From NCBI GenBank assembly GCA_040752415.1, contig JBFMGU010000248.1, positions 1 to 15,912 of the forward strand: 15,912 nucleotides of DNA, read 5' to 3'. Of this stretch, positions 291-10,893 are shown one piece after another. Position 1 is the first letter of the stretch, and each line of letters starts with the position of its first letter. This stretch comes from Myxococcota bacterium. GTDB lineage: Bacteria; Myxococcota; JACRCW01. The notes under the pieces were generated by a model that was given only the letters and a program-made list of their open reading frames with translations, ran no database searches and was not told the DNA's origin. Position numbers and translations under genes: made by a program.

Positions 291-1604
291 ATGAACCGTG
301 TGCGCGGGCTCGGTGGTCTCGCCGTCCTCGTTGCCATCACGCTGGCGTCGACGCTGGCGCGGGCGGACACGTCACGCCCGGTGGCCATCATGCGCCTGGA
401 TGGCACGGTGGACCCCGGCTCGCTGCGCTACCTGGAGCGCGGACTGCACGACGCGGCGGAGCATGACGCGGCGCTGGTGATCCTGGAGCTCAACACGCCG
501 GGTGGCCTCCTGGTCTCGCTGCGCGAGATGACCACCGCCATCACCACGTCGACGGCACCGGTGGCGGTGTGGGTGACGCCGCCGGGAGCGCACGCTGCGT
601 CGGCGGGATTCTTCCTGGTGCTCGCCGCCGACGTGGCGGCCATGGCACCGGGCACCACCACCGGCGCGGCGCACCCGGTGGCCATTGGCCCCGGCGGCCC
701 GAGTGAGGACGGGGAACCCAGCGCCGCCATGCAGAAGGCCGCCCAGGACGCCGCGGCATTCGCGCGCACGCTGGCGCAGCAACGGGGTCGCTCGCCCGAG
801 CACGCCGAGGCGGCGGTCCTGGAGTCGCGCTCCTTTGCGGCGCATGAGGCGCGAGCCATGGGGTTGGTCGACGTGGTGGTGAACACGCGTGAGGAGCTGC
901 TTGACTGGCTGCACGGCCGCACCGTCCGCCGACTCAACGGCTCCACGACGACGCTGCACCTGCGCGACGCGCCCCTGGTGGACCTCTCGCCAAGTTGGGC
1001 GGAGCGCGTGCTGATGCGCCTGGGCAACCCGGAGCTGGCCTACCTGCTCTTGCTGGTGGGGCTGCTGGCCCTGATGACCGAGCTGACCAACCCGGGCATG
1101 GTGATTCCGGGTGTCGTCGGAGCGTTCTGCCTGTTGCTGGGGCTGTACGGCTTCTCGGTCATTCCGGTCTCGGCGGTGGGCGTGCTGCTGGTGCTTGCCG
1201 GTCTTGCGTTGTTGGTGGCGGAGGTGTTCGTCATCAGCCACGGGCTGCTCGCCGTGGGCGGGCTCACCGCGTTTGTCCTGGGCTCCCTGATGCTCGTCGA
1301 CACGCCGGTGCCGGAGTGGCGCGTGGACCTGGTGGTGGTGCTGCCCGCCGCGCTGGTCATGGCCGCGGTGATCCTGTTGCTTCTGCGCCAGGCCTTCCGG
1401 CTCCGCGGAGTGCCGGCGCTCACCGGCGTCGACGCGATGGTGGGCGAGGTTGGCGAGGCGGTCTCCCCGTTGAGCCCCGACGGGAAGGTGCGGGTGCACG
1501 GGGAGTACTGGGATGCGGTGGCCACGCACCCCGTCCCCGACGGCGCGCACGTCCGCGTGGTTCGCATCGAGAGTGGCCGGCTGCACGTGGAGCCGACGCC
1601 GTAG
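291..1604 (+). CDS. nfeD: NfeD family membrane-bound ClpP-class serine protease (long form)
   Basis: Signal peptide ([25 protein letters not shown]). Protease-domain motifs [14 protein letters not shown] (Ser) and QKAAQD (Lys). Then a TM bundle (ELTNPG...AEVF) and a C-terminal OB-fold [12 protein letters not shown]. Lies directly upstream of an SPFH gene. Start moved from 78 to the ATG at 291. Confidence 0.93.
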
Positions 1605-1612
1605 GAGGTGAC

Positions 1613-2440
1613 ATGGGGTTCTTGTCGTCGGAGTTCGTGGGGATCCTGGTTGCGTTGGCGGTGGTGCTCTTCTTCCTGACCCGCTGGATCAAGGTGTTGC
1701 CCGAGTACCAGCGCGGCGTGGTGTTCCGCCTGGGACGCGTGTTGGCGGAGCCCAAGGGACCGGGGCTGGTCCTCATCTTCTGGCCCATTGACCGCATGGT
1801 GCGGGTGAGCCTGCGTACCGTGGTGGAGGACATCCCACCGCAGGACGTCATCACGCGCGACAACGTCTCCATCAAGGTCAACGCGGTGGTCTACTTCCGG
1901 GTGCTCAATCCCATCGCCGCGGTCATCGAGGTGGAGAACTATCTCTACGGCACCTCGCAGCTGGCGCAGACCACGCTCCGTTCCGTGCTGGGCACGGTGG
2001 AGCTCGACGAGCTGCTCTCGGAGCGGGACAAGATCAACCTGCGCCTGCAGACCATCATCGACCGGCAGACCGACCCGTGGGGCGTGAAGGTCGCGCTGGT
2101 GGAGGTGAAGCACGTGGACCTGCCGTCCGAGATGCAGCGGGCCATGGCGCGCCAGGCGGAAGCGGAGCGTGAGAAGCGCGCGAAGGTGATCCTGGCCGAC
2201 GGTGAGTACCTGGCCGCGCAACGCCTCTCCGACGCTGCGGAGATCATGGACCGCCAGCCGGGCACCCTGCAGCTGCGCTACCTGCACACGTTGCTGGACC
2301 TGTCCGCGGAACGCAGCTCCACCATCGTGTTCCCGGTGCCGGTGGATACGCTGCGCTCCTTCCTGGAAGTGGAAGCGCGGGGCAATGGCGTGAAGCAGCG
2401 GCCTGCTCCGTCGACGCCACGGCCCAGCGCGCCCAGCTGA
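1613..2440 (+). CDS. SPFH/Band 7 stomatin-like (slipin) protein
   Basis: GGAGGTG RBS at 1604-1610 and ATG at 1613. N-terminal TM helix, then [56 protein letters not shown] and LQLRYL. Confidence 0.95.
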
Positions 2441-2448
2441 GTGAAGGA

Positions 2449-2880
2449 TCAGTGCCGGGCGGCGACCACGAAGCGCGCGCCAAAGCGGACCAGCCGGCCG
2501 GAGAGCAACCCGTCGACAGCGTCGAGCAGCGTGTCCGGACGGAAGGGGCGGGTCAGCACCAGGTCACATCCCGCGTCAATGGCGCGCTGGTGCTCCTCGA
2601 CGGTGTTGAGCCCGGTGACGGCGAGGATGGGCGTGCGCCACGTCTCGATGTGGGCGCGCAGGCAACGCGTGGCCACAAAGCCGTCCATCACCGGCATGAC
2701 CAGGTCCATCACGATGAGCGCGGGCCCAAGGCGGATGGCCTGCTCCAGCGCCTCCCGCCCGTTGGTTGCCTCCTCGACGTGAAAACGCCGGCGCAGGATG
2801 TTCCCCGCGACGTGTCGTCCCAGGTCGCTGTCATCAACGACGAGGATGACCGGCCCTCCCGACGCTCCCACCAGTCCCAT
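2449..2880 (-). CDS. Single-domain response regulator (CheY/DivK-like receiver)
   Basis: ILVVDD, IVMDLVMPVMDG (phospho-Asp), PILAVTG and AGCDLVLTRPF. The start at ATG 2880 was chosen from the domain boundary and is uncertain. Confidence 0.88.
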   Translation of the reverse strand: MGLVGASGGPVILVVDDSDLGRHVAGNILRRRFHVEEATNGREALEQAIRLGPALIVMDLVMPVMDGFVATRCLRAHIETWRTPILAVTGLNTVEEHQRAIDAGCDLVLTRPFRPDTLLDAVDGLLSGRLVRFGARFVVAARH

Positions 2881-2982
2881 GTCCCGCCTCACCTGGCCGC
2901 ACCGTCGCGGCGCCCCGTCCAACAACCGCTGACGTCGCGCGCGCATTCCTTGGCGGCGGTGACATCTCTGCAACAGGGTGCC

Positions 2983-3381
2983 TCACGCCCAACCCTGCGC
3001 CTGCAGGAGCGCCATGACCCGGGCGCGGACCTCGTCGCGGATTTCGCGCACGCGCCCCACCGGCTTGCCCTTGGGATCCTCCAGCGGCCAATCATCACGT
3101 GCGAGGCCGGGCACGTATGGACACGCCTCGCCGCAGCCCATGGTGATGAGCATCTGCGCCCCGGCGGCCAGCTCGTCGGTGAGCTTGCGTGGTGTAGCGC
3201 CGCTGAGGTCAAGGCCCACCTCCCGCATGGCCTCCGCCACCTCGGGATGGACGCGCGGCCCGGGTTGCGTGCCGGCGGAGATGGCGCGCGCACGCGCGGG
3301 GTTGCACAGCGCATTGAAGAACGCCGCGGCCATCTGCGAGCGACCGGCGTTGTGCACACAGGCGAAGATCACGGTCTTCAT
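2983..3381 (-). CDS. arsC: Arsenate reductase, LMW-PTP (thioredoxin-type) family
   Basis: P-loop CVHNAGRSQ, plus SAGTQP, ITMGCGEACP and DWPLEDP. ATGA overlap with the aquaporin stop at 3378-3381. Sits in an ars operon. Confidence 0.94.
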   Translation of the reverse strand: MKTVIFACVHNAGRSQMAAAFFNALCNPARARAISAGTQPGPRVHPEVAEAMREVGLDLSGATPRKLTDELAAGAQMLITMGCGEACPYVPGLARDDWPLEDPKGKPVGRVREIRDEVRARVMALLQAQGWA

Positions 3382-4106
3382 GGGGACTCCTCGGGGAGCG
3401 CGGGGTGGGCCAGCACCACGTCGGCGGCCACCGAAGGCGTGGGCGGCAACATCCAGTGGAACAACGCCGTGGCGCCGGCCGCGCCCACCAGTTGCGCCAG
3501 GATGAACCCGGGCACGTCCTCGGGGCGGATGCCGGCGAAGGTGTCGGTGAGCGCGCGCGCCAGCGTCACGGCGGGATTGGCAAACGAGGTGGACGCGGTG
3601 AACCAGTACGCCGCGGTGATGTACGCACCCACCGCAAAGGGAACCACCGCGGCCTTCACCCTCGAGCAGCCCCAGATCACGGCGAGCAGGCCGAACGTCG
3701 CCACGCACTCGCTGAACATCTGCGCGCGACCCTCCCGGACATGCTGCGACACCTGCGCCACCGGCAGGGCAAACATGACGTGGGCGGCGAACACGCCCAG
3801 CACGGCGCCCAGCACCTGCGCGCCGATGTAGACGGGTGCTTCGCGCCACGGCAGACCGCGCTCCCACGCCGCGGACAATGTCACCACCGGATTGAAATGC
3901 GCCCCGGAGATGGGCCCGAACGTGAGGATCAACGCCACCAGGGCGGCACCCGTGGCCAGCGTGTTGGCGAGCAGCGCCAGGCCCACGCTTCCGCCGCTGA
4001 GCCGCTCACCCATGATGCCGGAGCCCACCACCGTGGCCAGCAGCAACGCGGTTCCGGTGCCCTCCGCCACCACGCGTCGCGTGAGGGAGAGGGAGACGCT
4101 GCTCAC
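3378..4106 (-). CDS. MIP/aquaporin family channel, AqpS-like (probable arsenite channel)
   Basis: AEGTGTALL, ISGAHFNPVVT and AYWFTASTSFANPAVT with six TM segments. GTG start overlaps the arsI stop (GTGA, 4103-4106). Confidence 0.92.
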   Translation of the reverse strand: MSSVSLSLTRRVVAEGTGTALLLATVVGSGIMGERLSGGSVGLALLANTLATGAALVALILTFGPISGAHFNPVVTLSAAWERGLPWREAPVYIGAQVLGAVLGVFAAHVMFALPVAQVSQHVREGRAQMFSECVATFGLLAVIWGCSRVKAAVVPFAVGAYITAAYWFTASTSFANPAVTLARALTDTFAGIRPEDVPGFILAQLVGAAGATALFHWMLPPTPSVAADVVLAHPALPEESP

Positions 4107-4564
4107 GACCGTGCGCCCTTGAGCGCGTTGAGCACGCCGCCCTTCACGGTCACCGTGGGCGCGCAGCACGCCGCGGCCTTCTCCGGTGAAGCCTCGCCGT
4201 ACACGGTGGACTCGCCCACGGTGTGGAACGCTTCCCACGCCAGGCCCGCCGGATCATGCACCCAGCCCTTCTCGCTCTGGGCGTAGCAGCAGGTGGTGTT
4301 GCCCTGCTCCAGCAGCTCCCCCGACGACGCCATGCGGCCGTACACCTCCTGCAGCTCGTCGCGGCTCTCCACCTGGATGCCCAGGTGATCCACGCCCACC
4401 TTCTGCCCGCGCGCCGAGATGGCGAAGTTCACGCGCGGATCCTCCAGCATCCACTTGGCGTAGTCCGGCTTCTTCACGGTGGGCGCCACGCCGAACATCC
4501 CGGAGTAGAACCGCACTGCGTCGTCGAGGTTCTCCACCGCCACGTGCACGTGGAAGCGCTTCAT
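4103..4564 (-). CDS. arsI: ArsI/CadI family VOC metalloenzyme (C-As lyase-like)
   Basis: MKRFHVHVAV, KPDYAKWMLEDPRVNFAIS, DHLGIQV and TTCCYAQSEKGWVHDPAGLAWEAF (His/His/Glu plus vicinal Cys). AAGGAGG RBS and ATGA overlap with arsR. Confidence 0.92.
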   Translation of the reverse strand: MKRFHVHVAVENLDDAVRFYSGMFGVAPTVKKPDYAKWMLEDPRVNFAISARGQKVGVDHLGIQVESRDELQEVYGRMASSGELLEQGNTTCCYAQSEKGWVHDPAGLAWEAFHTVGESTVYGEASPEKAAACCAPTVTVKGGVLNALKGARS

Positions 4565-4908
4565 CGTCTTTCCTCCTTGCCTTTCTTCGTCCGTTCCGTG
4601 GGGGTTGGGCAGCATTCCCCGGGCTGCTCCGCGCAGCAGTTGTCCATCAGGAAGCCCACCAGCGCGTCCATCCTCGGGTAGTCCGCGGAGTAGATGATGG
4701 ACCTGCCTTCCCGACGTGAGCTCACCAACCCGGCATGCGAGAGCTGCGAGAGATGGAAGGACATGGTGGCGGGCGGAATGCCCAGGCGCTCCGCCATCTC
4801 ACCGGCCGCCATTCCCTGCGGGCCGCGTCGCACCAGGAGGCGGAACACGGCCAGCCGGGACTCATGGGCCAGCGCCGACAACGCCGTCACCACGTCCGTG
4901 GATTTCAT
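4561..4908 (-). CDS. arsR: ArsR/SmtB family repressor, C-terminal Cys-site type
   Basis: LSALAHESRLAVFRLLV, wHTH ATMSFHLSQLSHAGLVSSRREGRSIIYSA and C-terminal NCCAEQPGECC. First gene of the ars operon. Confidence 0.95.
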   Translation of the reverse strand: MKSTDVVTALSALAHESRLAVFRLLVRRGPQGMAAGEMAERLGIPPATMSFHLSQLSHAGLVSSRREGRSIIYSADYPRMDALVGFLMDNCCAEQPGECCPTPTERTKKGKEERR

Positions 4909-4928
4909 ATTTCCAGTAATATGGAAAT
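4909..4928. promoter_or_regulatory. Probable ArsR operator (7-6-7 inverted repeat)
   Basis: ATTTCCA-GTAATA-TGGAAAT, a perfect AT-rich palindrome in GC-rich DNA, directly abutting the arsR start codon. Confidence 0.8.
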
Positions 4929-4944
4929 GTTGGTGCCGTGTCAA
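4916..4944 (-). promoter_or_regulatory. Sigma70-type promoter of the ars operon
   Basis: Minus strand reads TTGACA (4944-4939), a 17-nt spacer, TATTAC (4921-4916), 7 nt, then ATG. Confidence 0.7.
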
Positions 4945-5029
4945 CACCGCGCTGCGCGAGCCGGGTGACGCCGTGGCTCATGCGGCGGGCCAATCCGAAC
5001 TCGAGCGCCACTGCAAGCGCAGATAATTC

Positions 5030-5059
5030 TTGAAACCACAAACGCCCGTGCTCTAACGC
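5030..5059 (+). promoter_or_regulatory. Possible weak sigma70-type promoter of the divergent operon
   Basis: TTGAAA (5030-5035), 18 nt, TAACGC (5054-5059), ending 5 nt before the ATG at 5065. The -35 lies in an AT-rich patch, but the -10 match is poor. Confidence 0.25.
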
Positions 5060-5064
5060 CGGGC

Positions 5065-5550
5065 ATGACCACGTCCTCGTCGGAGCGGCCGCACGTCCCG
5101 CTGAGTGCCATTGCGGCGTCCATCCATCCTGAGCGGCTTCAGGCCGTGCTGGCGCCCTGGCTCCCCGACCCGGCGGACCGCGCCTTCGTGGTGCGTTGCC
5201 TGGTCCACGAGGGTCCCCACCACCACCGCGGCGCGAACTACGTGCTCATCTCGCTGCTGGGCCTGCTCGTCGAGGCCGTGGGAGTGGGTGCGGTGGACCC
5301 CGACGCTCCCTCCGCGCCGGTGCCCATGCGGCTGCCGCCGGACCTGTTGGAGCACAACCCGCAGGGACATTTTCCGCTGCGCCTTCCGCTTGCGCCGCTG
5401 AGACGCCTGGCGCCGGAGGGCTCGTCGGAATTCCAGGCCATGGTGGATTGCCTCACCGACGGGCCACCGCAGCACGCGCTCGCCAACGCGGCCACGGTCG
5501 CCATGATCGGCGCATTGTTGGACAAGCTTGCTGGAGGCCGGCACGGATGA
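5065..5550 (+). CDS. Hypothetical protein with duplicated C-L-x(1,2)-[DE]-G-P-x-x-H-x-x-A-N motif
   Basis: 161 aa with GC3-rich codons. ATGA overlap with the next gene. Internal repeat RCLVHEGPHHHRGAN / DCLTDGPPQHALAN. Confidence 0.85.
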   Translation: MTTSSSERPHVPLSAIAASIHPERLQAVLAPWLPDPADRAFVVRCLVHEGPHHHRGANYVLISLLGLLVEAVGVGAVDPDAPSAPVPMRLPPDLLEHNPQGHFPLRLPLAPLRRLAPEGSSEFQAMVDCLTDGPPQHALANAATVAMIGALLDKLAGGRHG

Positions 5551-6182
5551 GCGCGCTGCCCGGCGGACTGGAGCAGGCCTTCCGTCTCGCCGCCGGCGAG
5601 CTGGGGATGTGCACCGCAAGCTGGCTCTTCACCGCGCAGCTGGGGGCCGCGGGTGGCCAGGCCATGGTGGCGGCGCTCCGCGACGAGCTGGGTCGCACGT
5701 TCCCCGTCCTGGATTTCGTGGCCACGCGCTGGTTGCGCGGGGAGGCGCCGCTGGCTCCCGTGTCGGAGCGCGTGGTGGAGCGCTGCCGTGGCGTGGAGCA
5801 GCTCCTGGTGGTGGGCCTGGAGACGTCGTTCCTGGATCCCCTGCTTCCGTTGCTGGGCGGCGTGCGCGTCTCCATCCTGACGGAGAGCCCGTTGAAGGTG
5901 GACTGGCGTCGGGTGGTTGCCAACCTGGGCCACGACGTGCGCCCCGTGGGTCTGGCCGACTTCCAGGTGCTGGCGGGCCGCCGCAGCGCGCTGCTGACCT
6001 TCCTCTACGGGCGTCACGGCCGCACCACACACGTCATGCCCGCCTGGTTGCGTGTCATGGGAGCGGATGTGCGCACGCAGTTCCGCACCATCGTGGGCTG
6101 GGACGTGTTGGGCGCGCCCATGTACGTCTACCCGCGCTGGCTCTTCGAGATTCCCTCCGACGACTTCACGGACCTGCTCTGA
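5547..6182 (+). CDS. Hypothetical alpha/beta protein (possible eIF-2B/NagB-RpiA-like fold)
   Basis: GGAGG RBS at 5533-5537 and ATG at 5547 overlapping the upstream stop. 211 aa with a helical N-terminus and alternating beta/alpha C-terminus (LLVVG, VSILTESP, ALLTFLYG). The fold call is a weak inference. Confidence 0.8.
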   Translation: MSALPGGLEQAFRLAAGELGMCTASWLFTAQLGAAGGQAMVAALRDELGRTFPVLDFVATRWLRGEAPLAPVSERVVERCRGVEQLLVVGLETSFLDPLLPLLGGVRVSILTESPLKVDWRRVVANLGHDVRPVGLADFQVLAGRRSALLTFLYGRHGRTTHVMPAWLRVMGADVRTQFRTIVGWDVLGAPMYVYPRWLFEIPSDDFTDLL

Positions 6183-6185
6183 ACC

Positions 6186-7514
6186 ATGCATCCCCAGGCC
6201 ATCCTCACCGCCATTCTCGTCGTGACGTTGCTGCTGCAGGCGGCGGTGCCGCGGATGCGCCTCGTGATCGTGAACGCGGGTGCGGCGCTGGCGTGCCTGG
6301 CCACCTCGCTGCTGGGCCTGGCCACCACCGGGACGCTCCTGGCGGAGGTGCCCTGGGACGTGCTGGTGATCCTCGTGGGGCTGGGGCTGCTCTCGGAGAT
6401 GATGGCGGAGTCGCGGCTCTTTGGTCTGCTCGCGGTGGCAAGCACGCGGCTGAGTCGTGCCAATCCGCGCAAGGTGCTGCTGGCGTTTTGCGTGGGCATG
6501 TACGCGGTGAGTGGGCTGGTCAACAATCTCACCGCGCTCATCCTGGTGCTGCCCATCCTCCACATCCTGCTGCAGCTCATGAGCGTGGACCAGCGTTACA
6601 CGTCGTGGTGCCTGGGCGCGCTGCTGGTGGCGTGCAACCTGGGCGGCGCGGCCACGCCCATTGGCGACTTCCCCGCCATCCTGCTCCTCGGCCGCGGCAG
6701 CATGGACTTCACCGCGTATCTCTCGCTGGCGCTGCCCACGACGTTGGTGGCCCTGGTGATCCTCCTGCTGCTGGTGCTCTACGTGGTGAGGCCGGACCGC
6801 ACGCTGGGCCACGGTGAGGCTTCCTCCCGACTCAGCGTGGCGGTGATGTCGGCGCTCTACCGCAACACGAGGCTGGACTGGCGGGTGCTCGCCCCCTCGG
6901 CGGTCATGCTCGCGGTGATGCTGGTGGGCTGGACCGTGCTGCCCCGGGAGAGCGGCATGACCCCGGAGCTCATCTGCTGGCTCGGCGTGGGGACGGCGCT
7001 GCTGCTGCGACCCTCCCTGGGTGAGGTGCTGATGCGTCGCCGGGTGGACGTGGAGGCCGCGCTCTTCCTGCTCGCGCTCTTTGTCATGGTGGGCGCGGTC
7101 CGACGCAGCGGCATGTTCAAGGACGTTGCCGCCATGCTGGCCGAGCTGCCCGCGCCGCCGCTGGCGCAGCTCCTCGTGTTCCTGGTGCTGGCGGGCATCC
7201 TGACCGGGTTGTTCTCCGCGGGTCCCAGCATGGCGGCGTTGTTGGACGTGGCGGAGTCCCTGGCCCAGCGCATGGATGGCCCCGCCGTGTACGTGGGATT
7301 GGCGTTGAGCGTGTGTGCGGGCAGCTCGCTGTTCCTCACTGCCGCCACGTCGGGGCCCATGGCGCAGGCGTTGACTGAACGGGCCGAGCTCAAGGACCAC
7401 CGGGGCCAACCCCTGGCCTTCGGCTTCTTCCACTTCCTGCCCGTGGGAATGGTGGGCTTCTCCGTCATCCTGCTCGTGGGCATCGCCTTTGCGCTGTGGC
7501 GCGTGGGCTTCTGA
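6186..7514 (+). CDS. ArsB/NhaD (ion transporter superfamily, CitMHS/SLC13/P-protein-like) permease
   Basis: 442 aa with about 11-12 TM segments. Motifs VPWDVLVILVGL, SGLVNNLTALILVLP, ACNLGGAATPIGDFPAILL and VDVEAALFLLALFVMVG. Starts 3 nt after the upstream stop. Confidence 0.88.
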   Translation: MHPQAILTAILVVTLLLQAAVPRMRLVIVNAGAALACLATSLLGLATTGTLLAEVPWDVLVILVGLGLLSEMMAESRLFGLLAVASTRLSRANPRKVLLAFCVGMYAVSGLVNNLTALILVLPILHILLQLMSVDQRYTSWCLGALLVACNLGGAATPIGDFPAILLLGRGSMDFTAYLSLALPTTLVALVILLLLVLYVVRPDRTLGHGEASSRLSVAVMSALYRNTRLDWRVLAPSAVMLAVMLVGWTVLPRESGMTPELICWLGVGTALLLRPSLGEVLMRRRVDVEAALFLLALFVMVGAVRRSGMFKDVAAMLAELPAPPLAQLLVFLVLAGILTGLFSAGPSMAALLDVAESLAQRMDGPAVYVGLALSVCAGSSLFLTAATSGPMAQALTERAELKDHRGQPLAFGFFHFLPVGMVGFSVILLVGIAFALWRVGF

Positions 7515-7530
7515 CGACCTCAACTCGCCC

Positions 7531-9234
7531 TCACTGGATGTGATGGGCGCCGGACTTGCGGGCTTCCCGGGTGCCCATGAGCTGCACCACCTGCTGCCGC
7601 GAGGTTGCGCCACGCAGCGCCTCACGCTGCGGCGCCGTCACCACGGAGCGCACGATGGCGGAGTGCAGCTCCAGCGCGCGCTGCGGGGAGTGACGTGGCA
7701 GGAGCAGGAGGAAGACCAGTCCGGCGGGAACGCCGTCAGGCGCCTGGAAGTCGATTCCCCGCGTCGAGACGCCCAGTCCCAGCATGGGGCGGAACAGGCC
7801 GTCCACGCGGGCATGCACCAACGCCACTCCGTCGGAGAGCGCGCCAAAATCGCGAGGCTGGCTGGCGATGATCTCGTCGGCCAGCGCACCCGGATCCAGC
7901 GGGGTGCCGGCGGCCAGCTCCTCGGTGATGTGACGCACCGCCTGCTCGGGTGTGGCGCCGCGCAGCCGTGGGACGAAAGCGCCGCGGGAGATGAGGCCCA
8001 CCAGGTCCACCGGCACGTTGCCGCGCATCAGCCAGCCCATGGCCGGTCCCGCCATCAACGACGTCACCAGCGCCATCAGCAACAGCGCCACGAACAACGG
8101 CTCGTCAATCAGGCCGGCCTCCAATGCGGCCATGGCGAACACCATGCCCATGGCGCCGCGCGCGTTCATGCCAAATCCCACCGCCCACGCTTCACGCACA
8201 TCGGCACCGCTGGCCCGCGCGGCGGCACTGCAGCCCACCAGCTTCACCACGCAACCCACGCCCACCACCAACGCCACCAGCAGCGGGTCCAACGCCGCCA
8301 GGAAATCCACGCGCGTCCCCACCGACGCAAAGAACAACGGGCCCATCACGCTGTGCACCACCTCGCGCAGCCGGGAGCGCGTCTCGTGTGGCACCGCGCG
8401 GGACCGGCCCAGCGCCAACCCGACGACAAACGCGCCGAAGATGTAGTGCACATCCAAAAGCTGCATCACACCCGCGCCCAGGCAGCCCAGCACCACCACC
8501 GCCGCCAGCCCGTGTCCCGGCGCCGTGAGACGACGAGACTCCAACCACGCCAGCGGACCGGGCAGCAGCCGGTGACCCGCCCACAACGCGCCGCCGGTGA
8601 ACACCACCAGGCCCGCGGCGGAGGTCAGCACGTCGCGCCAGCCATGTGCGGCGCCGTCGACACTCTCCGCCACCAGGGAGAACAGCAGCCACGCCACCAG
8701 GTCATTGCCCACCGCCGCGGCCAGCACCACTGCGCCAAACTCGGAACGCAGCAGCCCCAGGTCCAGCAGCGTCTTGGCAATCACCGGGATGGCGGACACC
8801 AGCAGCGCCGCACCCACGAGCCCGGCCAGCAAGAGCTTCTCCTGCTCCGTGCCTCCACGCGTTGCCGCCAGCCACCAACCCAACGCCGCGCCACCCAGCA
8901 GCGGAAGCGCCATCCCGGTGGTGCTGGTCCACGCCACGGTGCGCCAGCGACGGGAAAGGTCCGCCAGGTCCACGTCGGTACCGGCCACCGTCAGCAGCGC
9001 CACGCCGCCCAACAGCGTCACCGCGCCGTGCATCTGCGAAGGGGCGTCGTGGTGGAACAGCTGCATGACGTCGGGATGCAGGCGGCCCAGGACGGTGGGG
9101 CCCAACAACACGCCCGCCATCAGCTCACCCACGACGGCCGGAAGGCGAATCCGCACCGCCAGCGCGCCCAGCACCCGCGCCGTCAACAACAGCAACGCCA
9201 GTGCCACCAGGAAGGTGGCGGTATCCGCACGCAT
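7531..9234 (-). CDS. CPA2-family cation:proton antiporter fused to a C-terminal PTS EIIA type-2 domain
   Basis: LPAVVGELMAGVLLGPTVLG, AAAVGNDLVAW, IFGAFVVG, PLFFASVG and GMNARGAM, followed by a soluble domain with GVALVHAR and GIDFQAPDGVPAGLVFLLL. GGAGG RBS. Confidence 0.9.
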   Translation of the reverse strand: MRADTATFLVALALLLLTARVLGALAVRIRLPAVVGELMAGVLLGPTVLGRLHPDVMQLFHHDAPSQMHGAVTLLGGVALLTVAGTDVDLADLSRRWRTVAWTSTTGMALPLLGGAALGWWLAATRGGTEQEKLLLAGLVGAALLVSAIPVIAKTLLDLGLLRSEFGAVVLAAAVGNDLVAWLLFSLVAESVDGAAHGWRDVLTSAAGLVVFTGGALWAGHRLLPGPLAWLESRRLTAPGHGLAAVVVLGCLGAGVMQLLDVHYIFGAFVVGLALGRSRAVPHETRSRLREVVHSVMGPLFFASVGTRVDFLAALDPLLVALVVGVGCVVKLVGCSAAARASGADVREAWAVGFGMNARGAMGMVFAMAALEAGLIDEPLFVALLLMALVTSLMAGPAMGWLMRGNVPVDLVGLISRGAFVPRLRGATPEQAVRHITEELAAGTPLDPGALADEIIASQPRDFGALSDGVALVHARVDGLFRPMLGLGVSTRGIDFQAPDGVPAGLVFLLLLPRHSPQRALELHSAIVRSVVTAPQREALRGATSRQQVVQLMGTREARKSGAHHIQ

Positions 9235-9375
9235 GCGCTCCCTCCGAAGCGTGGACGTTGTCCCACGTCGGGCACGACACGCGCAGCGGGGAAATCATGG
9301 CCACGCCCGCGGCAACGTCCGGAAACTCATCCGATGCGACCATGGTGCGCTAAGGCCCGCGTGTTGGAGGTGGTC

Positions 9376-10893
9376 ATGACACAAGCACGCGTGCCCCTGT
9401 CCCAGAAGCGGATGGAAGCGTTGGTGCGGGAACGCTTCGCCGGTCGTCGTCTCGTCGTGGTTTCCAACCGGGAACCGGTGGTGCACCAGCGCGGTGCCAA
9501 CGGGAAGCTCAAGGTCCAGCAGCCCGCGGGCGGCCTGACCACCGCCATGCTGCCCATTGTGCAGGCGTGTCGCGGCGTGTGGATTGCGCACGGCAGCGGC
9601 AACGCGGATTTCGACGTCACCGACGCGCGCGACGGACTGGAGTGGCCGCCGGAGAATCCCAGCTTCCGTCTGCGTCGCGTGCGCCTCCCGCCCGACGTGG
9701 AGGCCGGCTACTACAACGGGCTGGCCAATGAAGGCATCTGGCCGCTGTGCCACCTGGCGTACACCGCGCCGCTGTTCCGCCACTCGGACTGGGTGATGTA
9801 CCGCGAGGCCAACCGCATCTTCTCCGAGGCCGTGCTGGAGGAGATTGGCGACGAGCCCGCGGTGGTCTTCAGCCACGACTACCACCTGGGCCTGCTGCAG
9901 CGGATGTTGCGCAACCGTCGCCCCGACCTGCTCATGGCGCAGTTCTGGCACATCCCGTGGCCCAACCGTGAAGTGATGGGCGTGATGCCGTGGATGGCGG
10001 AGCTGCTGCACGGAATGCTGGGCAATGACCTCATGGGCTTCCACGTCCAGCAGCACTGCAACAATTTCCTGGACACCGTGGATCGCGGCATCGAGAGCCT
10101 TGTTGACTACGAGAACCACCGCGCCATCCGCGGGCGGAAGTCCACCTACGTGCGTCCCTTCCCCATCAGCATCGACGTGCACGCGTACCAGCAGACGGCG
10201 GCGGAGAAACCATTCGAGAAGGTGTTCCCGGAGCTGGCGGCGCGCACCCACGGCCAGGTGATGCTCCTCGGCGTCGACCGCCTCGACTACACCAAGGGCA
10301 TTCCGCACCGGCTGCGCGCGTTCGAGTCGCTCTTGGAGCAGTACCCGGAGTGGCGGGGCAAGGCCACGTTCGTCCAGATTGGCGCGCCCTCGCGCACCAC
10401 CATTCCGCGTTACGCCGCACTTGCCGACGAGGTGCAGGCGCTGGTGCGTCAGATCAATTCGCGTTTTGGGGGCCAGGAGCGCTGGACCGCGGTGCACTAC
10501 CTGCCGGAGCACCATGACCGCGAGATGCTGGCCGCGCTGTACCGTCGAGCGGACGTGTGCATGGTGACCTCCCTGCACGACGGCATGAACCTGGTGGCCA
10601 AGGAGTACATTGCCGCGCACGCCGGCACGCCGGGCACGCTGGTGCTCTCCAAGTTCACCGGTGCCGCGCGGGAGCTGCTGGAGGCGTGCCTGGTCAATCC
10701 CTATGACATCGAGGCCACGGCGGCGCTCATCGTCGAGACCTTGCGGATGTCGCCGCAGCAGCGCGCGGACGCCATGCGCCGCCTGTATGAACGCGTCTGC
10801 GCCCACGACGTGTACGACTGGGCCACCGACGTGCTCACCGGTCTCGACGAGGTCTCGCGTCGCCAGGAGGCGCAGGCGTTCCCGGGGAACTGA
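9376..10893 (+). CDS. otsA: Trehalose-6-phosphate synthase (GT20 family)
   Basis: GGAGGTG RBS then ATG at 9376. Motifs LVVVSNREP, AGGL, YYNGLANEGIWPLCH, HDYHL, FWHIPWP, LGVDRLDYTKGI and DGMNLVAKEY. Confidence 0.93.
   Translation: MTQARVPLSQKRMEALVRERFAGRRLVVVSNREPVVHQRGANGKLKVQQPAGGLTTAMLPIVQACRGVWIAHGSGNADFDVTDARDGLEWPPENPSFRLRRVRLPPDVEAGYYNGLANEGIWPLCHLAYTAPLFRHSDWVMYREANRIFSEAVLEEIGDEPAVVFSHDYHLGLLQRMLRNRRPDLLMAQFWHIPWPNREVMGVMPWMAELLHGMLGNDLMGFHVQQHCNNFLDTVDRGIESLVDYENHRAIRGRKSTYVRPFPISIDVHAYQQTAAEKPFEKVFPELAARTHGQVMLLGVDRLDYTKGIPHRLRAFESLLEQYPEWRGKATFVQIGAPSRTTIPRYAALADEVQALVRQINSRFGGQERWTAVHYLPEHHDREMLAALYRRADVCMVTSLHDGMNLVAKEYIAAHAGTPGTLVLSKFTGAARELLEACLVNPYDIEATAALIVETLRMSPQQRADAMRRLYERVCAHDVYDWATDVLTGLDEVSRRQEAQAFPGN

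Follow-up and report, generated by a model that had tools for sequence, protein, structure and literature searches.

A conserved three-gene module of Myxococcota joins an atypical ion-transporter-superfamily permease to two uncharacterised soluble proteins

Presentation of the hypothesis

We describe a module of three genes, g1-g2-g3, at positions 5,065 to 7,514 of a 15,912-nucleotide stretch of DNA from a Myxococcota bacterium (contig JBFMGU010000248.1 of GenBank assembly GCA_040752415.1), the whole of which we call the window. The module is real and conserved, and it is undescribed within the literature that we searched: work on myxobacterial salt tolerance and antiporters, on NhaD/arsenite permeases and Myxococcus, and on eIF2B-like regulators of transporters does not contain it, in a coverage outside which most subscription journals lie. 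Its third gene encodes a permease. We propose that this permease serves cation/proton homeostasis, its substrate being putative, and that it is gated by two dedicated cytoplasmic subunits, the products of g1 and g2. This is the reading that we prefer, and we would give it slightly less than an even chance. An earlier inspection of the sequence (the original prediction) had suggested a metalloid or oxyanion module, on the basis of adjacency to an arsenic resistance (ars) operon. In our analysis what ties the module to arsenic is no more than a chance of local gene arrangement.

Conservation of the module

That g1, g2 and g3 are real genes, beyond chance, follows from their codon-position pattern, their many database relatives and strict synteny. 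Third-position GC content is 0.85 in g1, 0.91 in g2 and 0.92 in g3, versus 0.46-0.50 at second positions, in a window of about 70% GC. Database searches returned 452 relatives of g1, 255 of g2 and at least 700 of g3; those of g1 and g2 come mostly from Myxococcota, isolates of Myxococcus and Corallococcus among them, with some metagenome-assembled genomes (MAGs) labelled Planctomycetota, and all are unnamed or 'hypothetical'. The three sets of gene coordinates (Table 1), the ATGA overlap between g1 and g2 (5547-5550) and the 3-nucleotide (nt) gap between g2 and g3 (ACC, 6183-6185) were predicted correctly and are all confirmed on the sequence, and a GGAGG stands 8 nt upstream of the g2 ATG. 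A long antisense open reading frame (ORF), 5238-7625, has a shadow-frame pattern and no family match.

All 18 Myxococcota loci that were fetched keep the order and strand of the three genes (tblastn). A second set of 45 loci was obtained from species-representative genomes, with 11 on the same contigs as the first set; 42 of the 45 have all three genes in order, and the remaining three are either cut by contig ends (L084, L086) or a degraded remnant (L087). Hence the suggestion of an uncharacterised, tightly coupled three-gene operon turned out to be genuine, and its homologues do stay together. The remnant, at 8804-10097 of a locus from a Polyangium MAG, consists of the C-terminal third of g1 and 28 residues of g2, with g3 split in two pieces and lacking its first 67 residues.

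For the finer comparisons we used 41 non-redundant loci, namely the window and 40 others; 12 of the 45 loci of the second set were left out (seven further Sorangium chromosomes that are close kin of three analysed, two short contigs, and three truncated or degraded loci). The stop of g1 overlaps the start of g2 by 4 nt in 32 of the 41 and by 1 nt in four. At the g2/g3 junction the overlap is 4 nt in 29 loci and 1 nt in four, with the proviso that our script miscomputed this junction in 4/41 loci including the window, whose gap was read by eye. Translational coupling of this degree is what is expected of subunits made in fixed proportion.

Three of the 45 loci come from Burkholderiales MAGs (L067, L070, L078), therefore the module has crossed phyla. 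Its distribution is patchy, since g2 is present in only 22 of 401 sampled genomes of the phylum (a count that takes in genomes G000 and G195 and one marginal partial match); in one family it was found in 17 of 172 genomes.

The three proteins

To judge from its profile matches, g3 is a polytopic permease of the ion-transporter (IT) superfamily that belongs to none of the characterised families of this group. It exceeds the gathering score of the Pfam family CitMHS, PF03600 (127.2 bits versus 31.9, residues 31-369, E 1e-36). Its best NCBIfam match is MamN (NF040989), at 140.6 bits and below the cut-off of 500; no mam genes were found in the window. It fails the ArsB model NF011980, with 17.1 bits versus a cut-off of 457, and a search of the genome with TIGR00935 (ArsB) does not report g3 at E<=0.001. 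The description of g3 as an atypical permease of the ArsB/NhaD superfamily is thus accurate. Its close relatives go under the names 'SLC13 family permease' or 'Na+/H+ antiporter NhaD/arsenite permease-like protein' in the source databases.

The product of g2 has no Pfam or NCBIfam family at E<=0.01, and none credible was found among 48 relatives. Its AlphaFold2 (AF2) model, built on a 48-sequence alignment, has a mean confidence (pLDDT) of 95.6 and shows an N-terminal helical domain followed by a Rossmann-like domain, which is the two-domain IF-2B layout. From this model we confidently assign a fold like that of eIF2B-alpha/beta/delta and ribose-1,5-bisphosphate isomerase (RBPI), with a Foldseek E of about 1e-4. 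At the level of sequence the likeness vanishes: PF01008 is matched by 0 of the 48 aligned members at E<=1, and a sequence profile search of the PDB gave no relevant match. The ESM Atlas provided no usable feature matches; its own model of g2 is poor (pLDDT 0.37), and its structural rows were disregarded.

The invariant residues of g2 are E18, G20, G49, G90, E92, R122, N126, G144, Y154, G155, R169, D174, W185, P196 and R197, with R176 and R180 kept at 90% or more, and most of the invariant ones survive even in a homologue of 25% identity. The set is mostly charged or polar (E18, E92, R122, N126, R169, D174, R197) and looks like the lining of a pocket for a ligand that is anionic or phosphorylated. 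No cysteine is invariant or nearly so over the 48 sequences, which argues against a catalytic cysteine in g2.

The product of g1 is more unusual. It is without a Pfam or NCBIfam family at E<=0.01, with nothing credible among 46 relatives either, and without a fold match; sequence profile searches of the PDB with g1 and with g2 gave noise only (E >= 0.24). A match of g1 to MntR was discarded as lying within noise for helical proteins. The AF2 model is all-helical, with a pLDDT of 93.1. The protein is an internal duplication of a helix-turn-helix hairpin that carries the motifs C-x4-G-P-x-H-H and C-x3-G-P-P-x-H and a central PP(H/D). Residues 42-75 align with residues 126-158 at a local score of 51, whereas shuffles score 26 +/- 5 and one in 500 reached 51, and profile-profile comparison recovers the same repeat (hhalign probability 92.9%, E 3.7e-7). 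Invariant in the g1 alignment are R39, F41, R44, C45, G50, P51, H53, H54, G56, P91, P92, D132, G133, P134, H137 and N141, and within the Myxococcota clade Cys45 and Cys129 vary little or not at all.

The g1 family is rare, an exhaustive profile search having found 99 proteins among 1.84 billion representatives. We assessed its conservation over 61 sequences of at least 140 amino acids, that is, g1 of the window and 60 of the 99 representatives. G50-P51 and H53 are kept in 55-59 of them (H53 in 55), P92 in 57 and G133-P134 in 53-57; position 93 is histidine in 47 and H137 is kept in 44. Because of this pattern we regard three Pro-His motifs as the signature of the family and the cysteines as an addition of the Myxococcota clade. 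The aspartate that the window has at position 93 would be a conservative swap for a metal ligand, and a site that senses metal, pH or redox state is plausible on these motifs.

A further clue came from a domain fusion. In three distant representatives (P0441, P0451 and P0452) a REC domain (PF00072) precedes the g1 domain; a Pfam scan finds no REC domain in g1 of the window. A metagenome scan with the REC-g1 alignment returned nine loci, eight of which matched REC only and one of which (L088) is full-length. L088 is a metagenome contig of 45% GC on which the REC-g1 ORF (2208-3179) matches the g1 profile with an hhalign probability of 96.1% (E 3.3e-9). A g2-like gene (probability 99.3%, E 3.1e-20) overlaps it by 4 nt, and a g3-like gene of 40% identity (E 1e-93) scores 162.9 bits on the MamN model and 42.9 bits versus a cut-off of 577 on TIGR00775 (NhaD). 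Within 523-6057 (+) all genes lie on one strand, in the order cation diffusion facilitator (CDF) transporter, 115-residue ORF, REC-g1, g2-like, g3-like and MIP gene. As far as these sequences allow us to judge, the trio is of ancient origin, and g1 can be coupled to a two-component phosphorelay. We therefore favour a regulatory over a metabolic role.

We also predicted the complex of g1 and g2. It obtained 'weak support', with a score of 0.39 versus 0.01 for the best control; at least 90% of the contacts are shared between runs, and the partners have pLDDT values of 84 or more. Of 157 solved complexes 116 reach the mark applied, as do 2 of 215 mismatched pairs, and scores of 0.60 or less comprise just 18 of the 157 solved complexes together with both passing mismatches. 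Binding of g1 to g2 therefore has weak support from modelling, for a pair whose prior was already favourable given their invariant adjacency.

Genomic neighbourhood

On either side of the module we compared as many as three ORFs, delimited by a simple GC3-based ORF picker, in 18 + 22 loci, and searched the 98 + 116 proteins so obtained against Pfam. What recurs is a cation/proton antiporter. A gene of the cation/proton antiporter (CPA) type (PF00999) or of NhaA (PF06965) lies within three ORFs in 11 of the 41 loci, upstream (U) or downstream (D): window D1 (convergent), L027 D1, L031 U2, L033 U1 and D1, L036 U1, L038 U1, L040 D3, L041 U3, L051 D2, L064 U1 and L073 U1. In six of the 11 it is directly adjacent and on the same strand. 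One such case is L036, where the order is NhaA, g1, g2, g3, Ca2+/Na+ antiporter, with ORFs that overlap or abut, and where both flanking proteins are above their NCBIfam cut-offs (NhaA 401 bits versus 254, CaCA protein 242 bits versus 180).

The background frequency of such genes is about 0.8 per Mb (36 PF00999 and 7 PF06965 in six genomes, about 52.5 Mb). For 14-kb flanks, about 0.5 loci would be expected among 41, versus 11 observed, a fold-enrichment that overstates the number of separate events, related genomes not being independent. We nevertheless argue for a repeated association, since the antiporters are of more than one family and vary in the side and orientation in which they occur.

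In another five loci the only such neighbours are genes for trehalose synthesis, MscS, OpuAC or Nqr. Over the whole set, trehalose genes are found in the window, L031, L034 and L082, MscS in L042 and L043, OpuAC in L040, NqrA and an NqrC-like gene in L047, TrkA in L064, Usp in L042 and L071, Na+/Ca2+ exchangers in L036 and L073, the a and c subunits of F-type ATPase in L083, and a second IT-superfamily permease in L037 and L067.

A few neighbourhoods deserve mention in their own right. At L067 3536-4840 (+), in a Burkholderiales MAG, the second permease is of the CitMHS family and follows g3, overlapping it on the same strand, with TerB divergently upstream. L043 (4575-8471) and L074 (2925-6890) share, upstream and on the same strand, a GGDEF-hemerythrin protein and a PAS histidine kinase with a receiver domain, as well as an unknown ORF of 150-172 amino acids directly before g1; this upstream set may be a dedicated signalling input.

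A possible mechanism

Module integrity, the REC fusion, the antiporter neighbours, the MamN/NhaD-like character of g3 and the g1-g2 binding score together support the reading of a gated cation/proton-homeostasis permease. From them we infer a complex, its gating and the kind of substrate. The products of g1 and g2 would be made in a fixed ratio with g3 and would sit on its cytoplasmic face as a soluble pair of sensor and adaptor. The first would contribute a duplicated helical hairpin with a histidine motif (plus cysteines in Myxococcota), a domain that other lineages use as the output of a response regulator. The second would be a minimal eIF2B-fold protein, whose invariant Arg/Glu/Asp-rich patch would suit a phosphorylated or anionic ligand. 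Together they could switch g3 on or off, g1 in response to metal, redox state or pH and g2 in response to a metabolite. The flux through g3 would most likely be monovalent cation/proton exchange, or transport coupled to protons or sodium, serving Na+/H+, osmotic and alkaline-stress homeostasis. A more specific version, which we consider distinctly more doubtful, has the histidine-motif sensor, for which a phospho-receiver fusion can stand in other lineages, and the eIF2B-fold ligand sensor clamp a MamN-like permease whose proton or sodium flux backs up the antiporters under salt, alkaline or osmotic stress.

Several observations weigh against this proposal. In thirty of the 41 loci an antiporter is absent from the three ORFs on either side, and the three Sorangium loci analysed, like many others, have no ion or osmotic neighbours at all; the kinship of the genomes has been mentioned above. 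The permease is below the NhaD cut-off (NhaD_1, NF038006, 32.7 bits versus 80) and, by sequence, also resembles DASS/SLC13 anion symporters and PHO90. Conservation of the g1 cysteines is confined to the Myxococcota-type clade (C45 in 40/61, C129 in 22/61). Finally, the invariant polar residues of g2 could form an active site and not a sensor pocket.

Alternative explanations

In one alternative the module is devoted to uptake and metabolism: g3 would be a Na+-coupled symporter of an anionic or phosphorylated metabolite, like the DASS/SLC13/CitMHS carriers, g2, with g1 as its partner subunit, would be an enzyme of the eIF2B/MtnA/RBPI fold acting on the compound taken up, and the neighbouring antiporters would recycle the Na+ that enters with it. 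We consider this unlikely, although several observations speak for it. Both g3 and its L088 homologue weakly match the DASS and Na_sulph_symp models, the PDB offers a single sequence match for g3, to the SLC13-type domain of PHO90 from yeast (E 8e-8), and neighbours such as Nqr and Na+/Ca2+ exchangers fit a sodium cycle. Other observations speak against it. Isomerase members of the IF-2B family have a catalytic Cys/Asp pair, and the catalytic cysteine of MtnA and RBPI is essential; D174 of g2 is invariant, but no cysteine is. Further, g2 is 60-140 residues shorter than MtnA/RBPI-type enzymes and outside PF01008, no catabolic or biosynthetic genes recur beside the module, and the REC-fused g1 points to signalling.

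The histidine motifs of g1 permit another explanation, homeostasis of a divalent metal, in which g1 would be a metal sensor or chaperone binding through His/Cys and g3 would move a metal cation or a balancing proton. The model for this is what has been proposed for MamN, which accompanies the CDF proteins MamM and MamB. That the motifs are family-wide (H53, position 93 and H137, with the counts given above), that Cys45 and Cys129 are near-invariant in the Myxococcota clade, that MamN is the best NCBIfam match of g3 and that a CDF gene is nearby in L088 all speak for it. This CDF is FieF/MamM/MamB-like and lies two genes upstream of REC-g1; with the MamN-like gene it echoes the magnetosome mamAB set, and no other mam genes were seen there. 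However, genes for CDF or other metal transport occur in one of 42 loci only, L088 itself, there is no recurrent metalloregulator (an ArsR-type one is found only in the window and L029), and the likeness of g1 to MntR is no better than noise. We rate a divalent-metal role as somewhat less probable still than uptake and metabolism.

There remains the metalloid or oxyanion function originally predicted, which we take here as a new module for detoxification of arsenic, antimony or an oxyanion, under ArsR control and with g3 as the missing pump. The anatomy on which it was founded is roughly right. The module does comprise a small protein bearing Cys and His, a second soluble protein (g2) whose fold is of a ligand-binding or enzyme type, and a permease, and neither soluble protein matches any ars family, the Pfam and NCBIfam scans of both being empty. 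The 156-bp divergent spacer to arsR holds if arsR starts at the ATG at 4906-4908; the longest arsR ORF starts at GTG 4947, and the spacer would then be 117 bp. The ars operon indeed has neither Acr3 nor ArsB, and in G000, the genome to which the window belongs (11.0 Mb, 96.8% complete), we found no Acr3 and no ArsB above the cut-off, the best score being 89.8 bits versus 415, at another locus. In addition, the g1 cysteine pairs are conserved, the Arg-rich patch of g2 could bind a phosphate- or arsenate-like anion, and a MIP gene follows the module in L088 too.

The metalloid function itself found no support. No ars genes lie within three ORFs of the module in the 40 other loci, and the ArsI, MIP and ArsC proteins of the window have no tblastn match (E<=1e-5) in any of the 18 and 45 related loci. 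The enrichment near metalloid genes that one would look for is thus nil, ars genes standing beside the module in the window and in 0/18, 0/45 and 0/40 loci elsewhere. The nearest approaches are L029, where an ArsR-type regulator lies divergently and is paired with an AHSA1 gene, and the TerB of L067. We considered the MIP genes of the window and of L088 as orthologues and rejected this, for they share only 35 bits.

The ars operon also appears self-sufficient. A MIP channel lies next to arsC, and an aquaglyceroporin is a known substitute for ArsB; the operon looks like an AqpS-type route of arsenate detoxification together with an enzyme of the C-As lyase family. Because an aquaglyceroporin-type MIP adjoins arsC, it needs no pump from across the spacer. 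The spacer points the same way. Its sole operator-like palindrome, a perfect 7+7 ATTTCCA-N6-TGGAAAT at 4909-4928, is flush with the arsR start and about 100 bp from TTGAAA, the best -35-like hexamer of g1. This candidate ArsR operator is unique in the window (one match where 0.03 are expected, a count equalled in 6 of 200 shuffles); if arsR starts at GTG 4947, it falls inside arsR. With the genes unlinked elsewhere, the palindrome at the arsR end, an exit route already present and g3 outside the ArsB models, we regard an arsenic function as very improbable.

Relation to known systems

Of the characterised permeases, MamN and then NhaD are closest to g3, which is of the same superfamily and similar length (about 440 amino acids). 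It is far below both equivalog cut-offs and has no magnetosome genes near it. To our knowledge, neither MamN nor NhaD is accompanied by two obligatory soluble partner genes. The substrate of MamN is likewise unproven; PMC3905215 describes the protein as homologous to a Na+/H+ antiporter and speculates that it moves H+, by extrusion.

In its working the module would be most like KefF-KefC or ArsD-ArsA-ArsB, being a member of neither. The Kef systems (KefF-KefC and KefG-KefB) offer a working analogy, a secondary cation/H+ transporter that needs for its activity a small cytoplasmic partner of alpha/beta enzyme type, whose gene lies immediately upstream in the same operon. KefF is called an ancillary subunit in PMC2920069 and PMC10224563. 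They differ from g1-g2-g3 in that the transporter is of the CPA2 type with a KTN domain and not of the IT superfamily, and in having a single partner, where here there are two, one sometimes fused to REC. The fold of KefF is that of a flavodoxin-like quinone oxidoreductase, that of g2 is eIF2B-like.

ArsD-ArsA-ArsB follows the same logic, a permease of the ArsB/NhaD superfamily with two soluble proteins, one small and Cys-bearing; ArsD is a metallochaperone, and ArsA is the ATPase partner of the ArsB permease. However, g1 and g2 match no ars model, g2 is eIF2B-like and not a P-loop ATPase, g3 fails the ArsB model, and across loci the module has no ars linkage. With the proteins of the PF01008 fold (eIF2B alpha/beta/delta, aIF2B-like proteins, RBPI and MtnA) g2 shares the fold, without sequence membership; it is shorter, and it is encoded as the partner of a permease.

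Implications of the hypothesis

Across Myxococcota, in some Burkholderiales and in a distant lineage of low GC, two protein families without a Pfam or NCBIfam model, one of them also without a detectable fold relative, are kept strictly together with a permease. If these partners do gate the permease, they would constitute a new accessory-subunit system for the ion-transporter superfamily, which includes ArsB, NhaD, MamN and SLC13 and whose regulation is poorly understood. The module would then give a first functional handle on MamN-type transporters and a tractable model for MamN-like function, and g2 would be the first eIF2B-fold protein to act as a transporter regulator. For annotators there is a more immediate lesson: g3 should not be called an arsenite pump from COG-style names or a single adjacency.

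Other features of the window

Table 1. Position, strand and characteristics of the module genes and neighbouring features in the window
Feature	Position	Strand	Remarks
LMWP-type arsC	2983 to ~3400	-	LMWPc PF01451
MIP channel	3378 to ~4100	-	PF00230
arsI/cadI (VOC enzyme)	4103-4564	-	ArsI_CadI_VOC 129 bits vs cut-off 116
arsR (ArsR/SmtB)	4561..4908	-	HTH_20/HTH_5, NF033788 75 bits; first gene of operon
Divergent spacer arsR/g1	4909..5064		156 bp
g1	5065..5550	+	ATG 5065, TGA 5548-5550, 161 aa
g2	5547..6182	+	ATG 5547, TGA 6180-6182, 211 aa
g3	6186..7514	+	ATG 6186, stop 7512-7514, 442 aa
CPA2-type cation/proton antiporter with C-terminal PTS-EIIA(Ntr)-like domain	7531..9234	-	PF00999 161 bits, PF00359, TIGR00932, PtsN-like
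Trehalose-6-phosphate synthase gene (GT20)	~9450-10893	+	402 bits; beyond antiporter gene

Upstream of g1 a weak promoter-like pair, TTGAAA-N16/17-TCTAAC/CTAACG, ends some 7 nt short of the ATG, and the gene lacks a Shine-Dalgarno sequence; a consensus scan of 4500-7800 found no sigma-70 site and no terminator. When window 5030-5064 and the 90 nt upstream of g1 in L043-L087 are viewed by eye, a TAnnnT-like box without Shine-Dalgarno is seen 7-13 nt before the ATG in many loci; L043 and L074, for example, have TATGAT, whereas L082 and the Sorangium loci have TACGCT. On this pattern the g1 mRNA may be leaderless or have a very short leader.

The antiporter gene is convergent with g3, their stop codons being 16 nt apart. 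In E. coli, free unphosphorylated PtsN is reported (PMC11808508) to bind and inhibit the K+/H+ antiporter YcgO. In the antiporter of the window a PtsN-like regulator appears to be fused to the transporter itself.

The 1134-residue ORF at 7489-10893 (+) is a high-GC artefact, its 5' part overlapping the antiporter gene on the opposite strand; the trehalose-6-phosphate synthase match is restricted to its last 480 or so codons (residues 654-1119). Elsewhere the window carries typical Myxococcota genes, namely those for an FHA-sigma54 activator, a PEGA protein and a type II secretion system (T2SS) pseudopilin.

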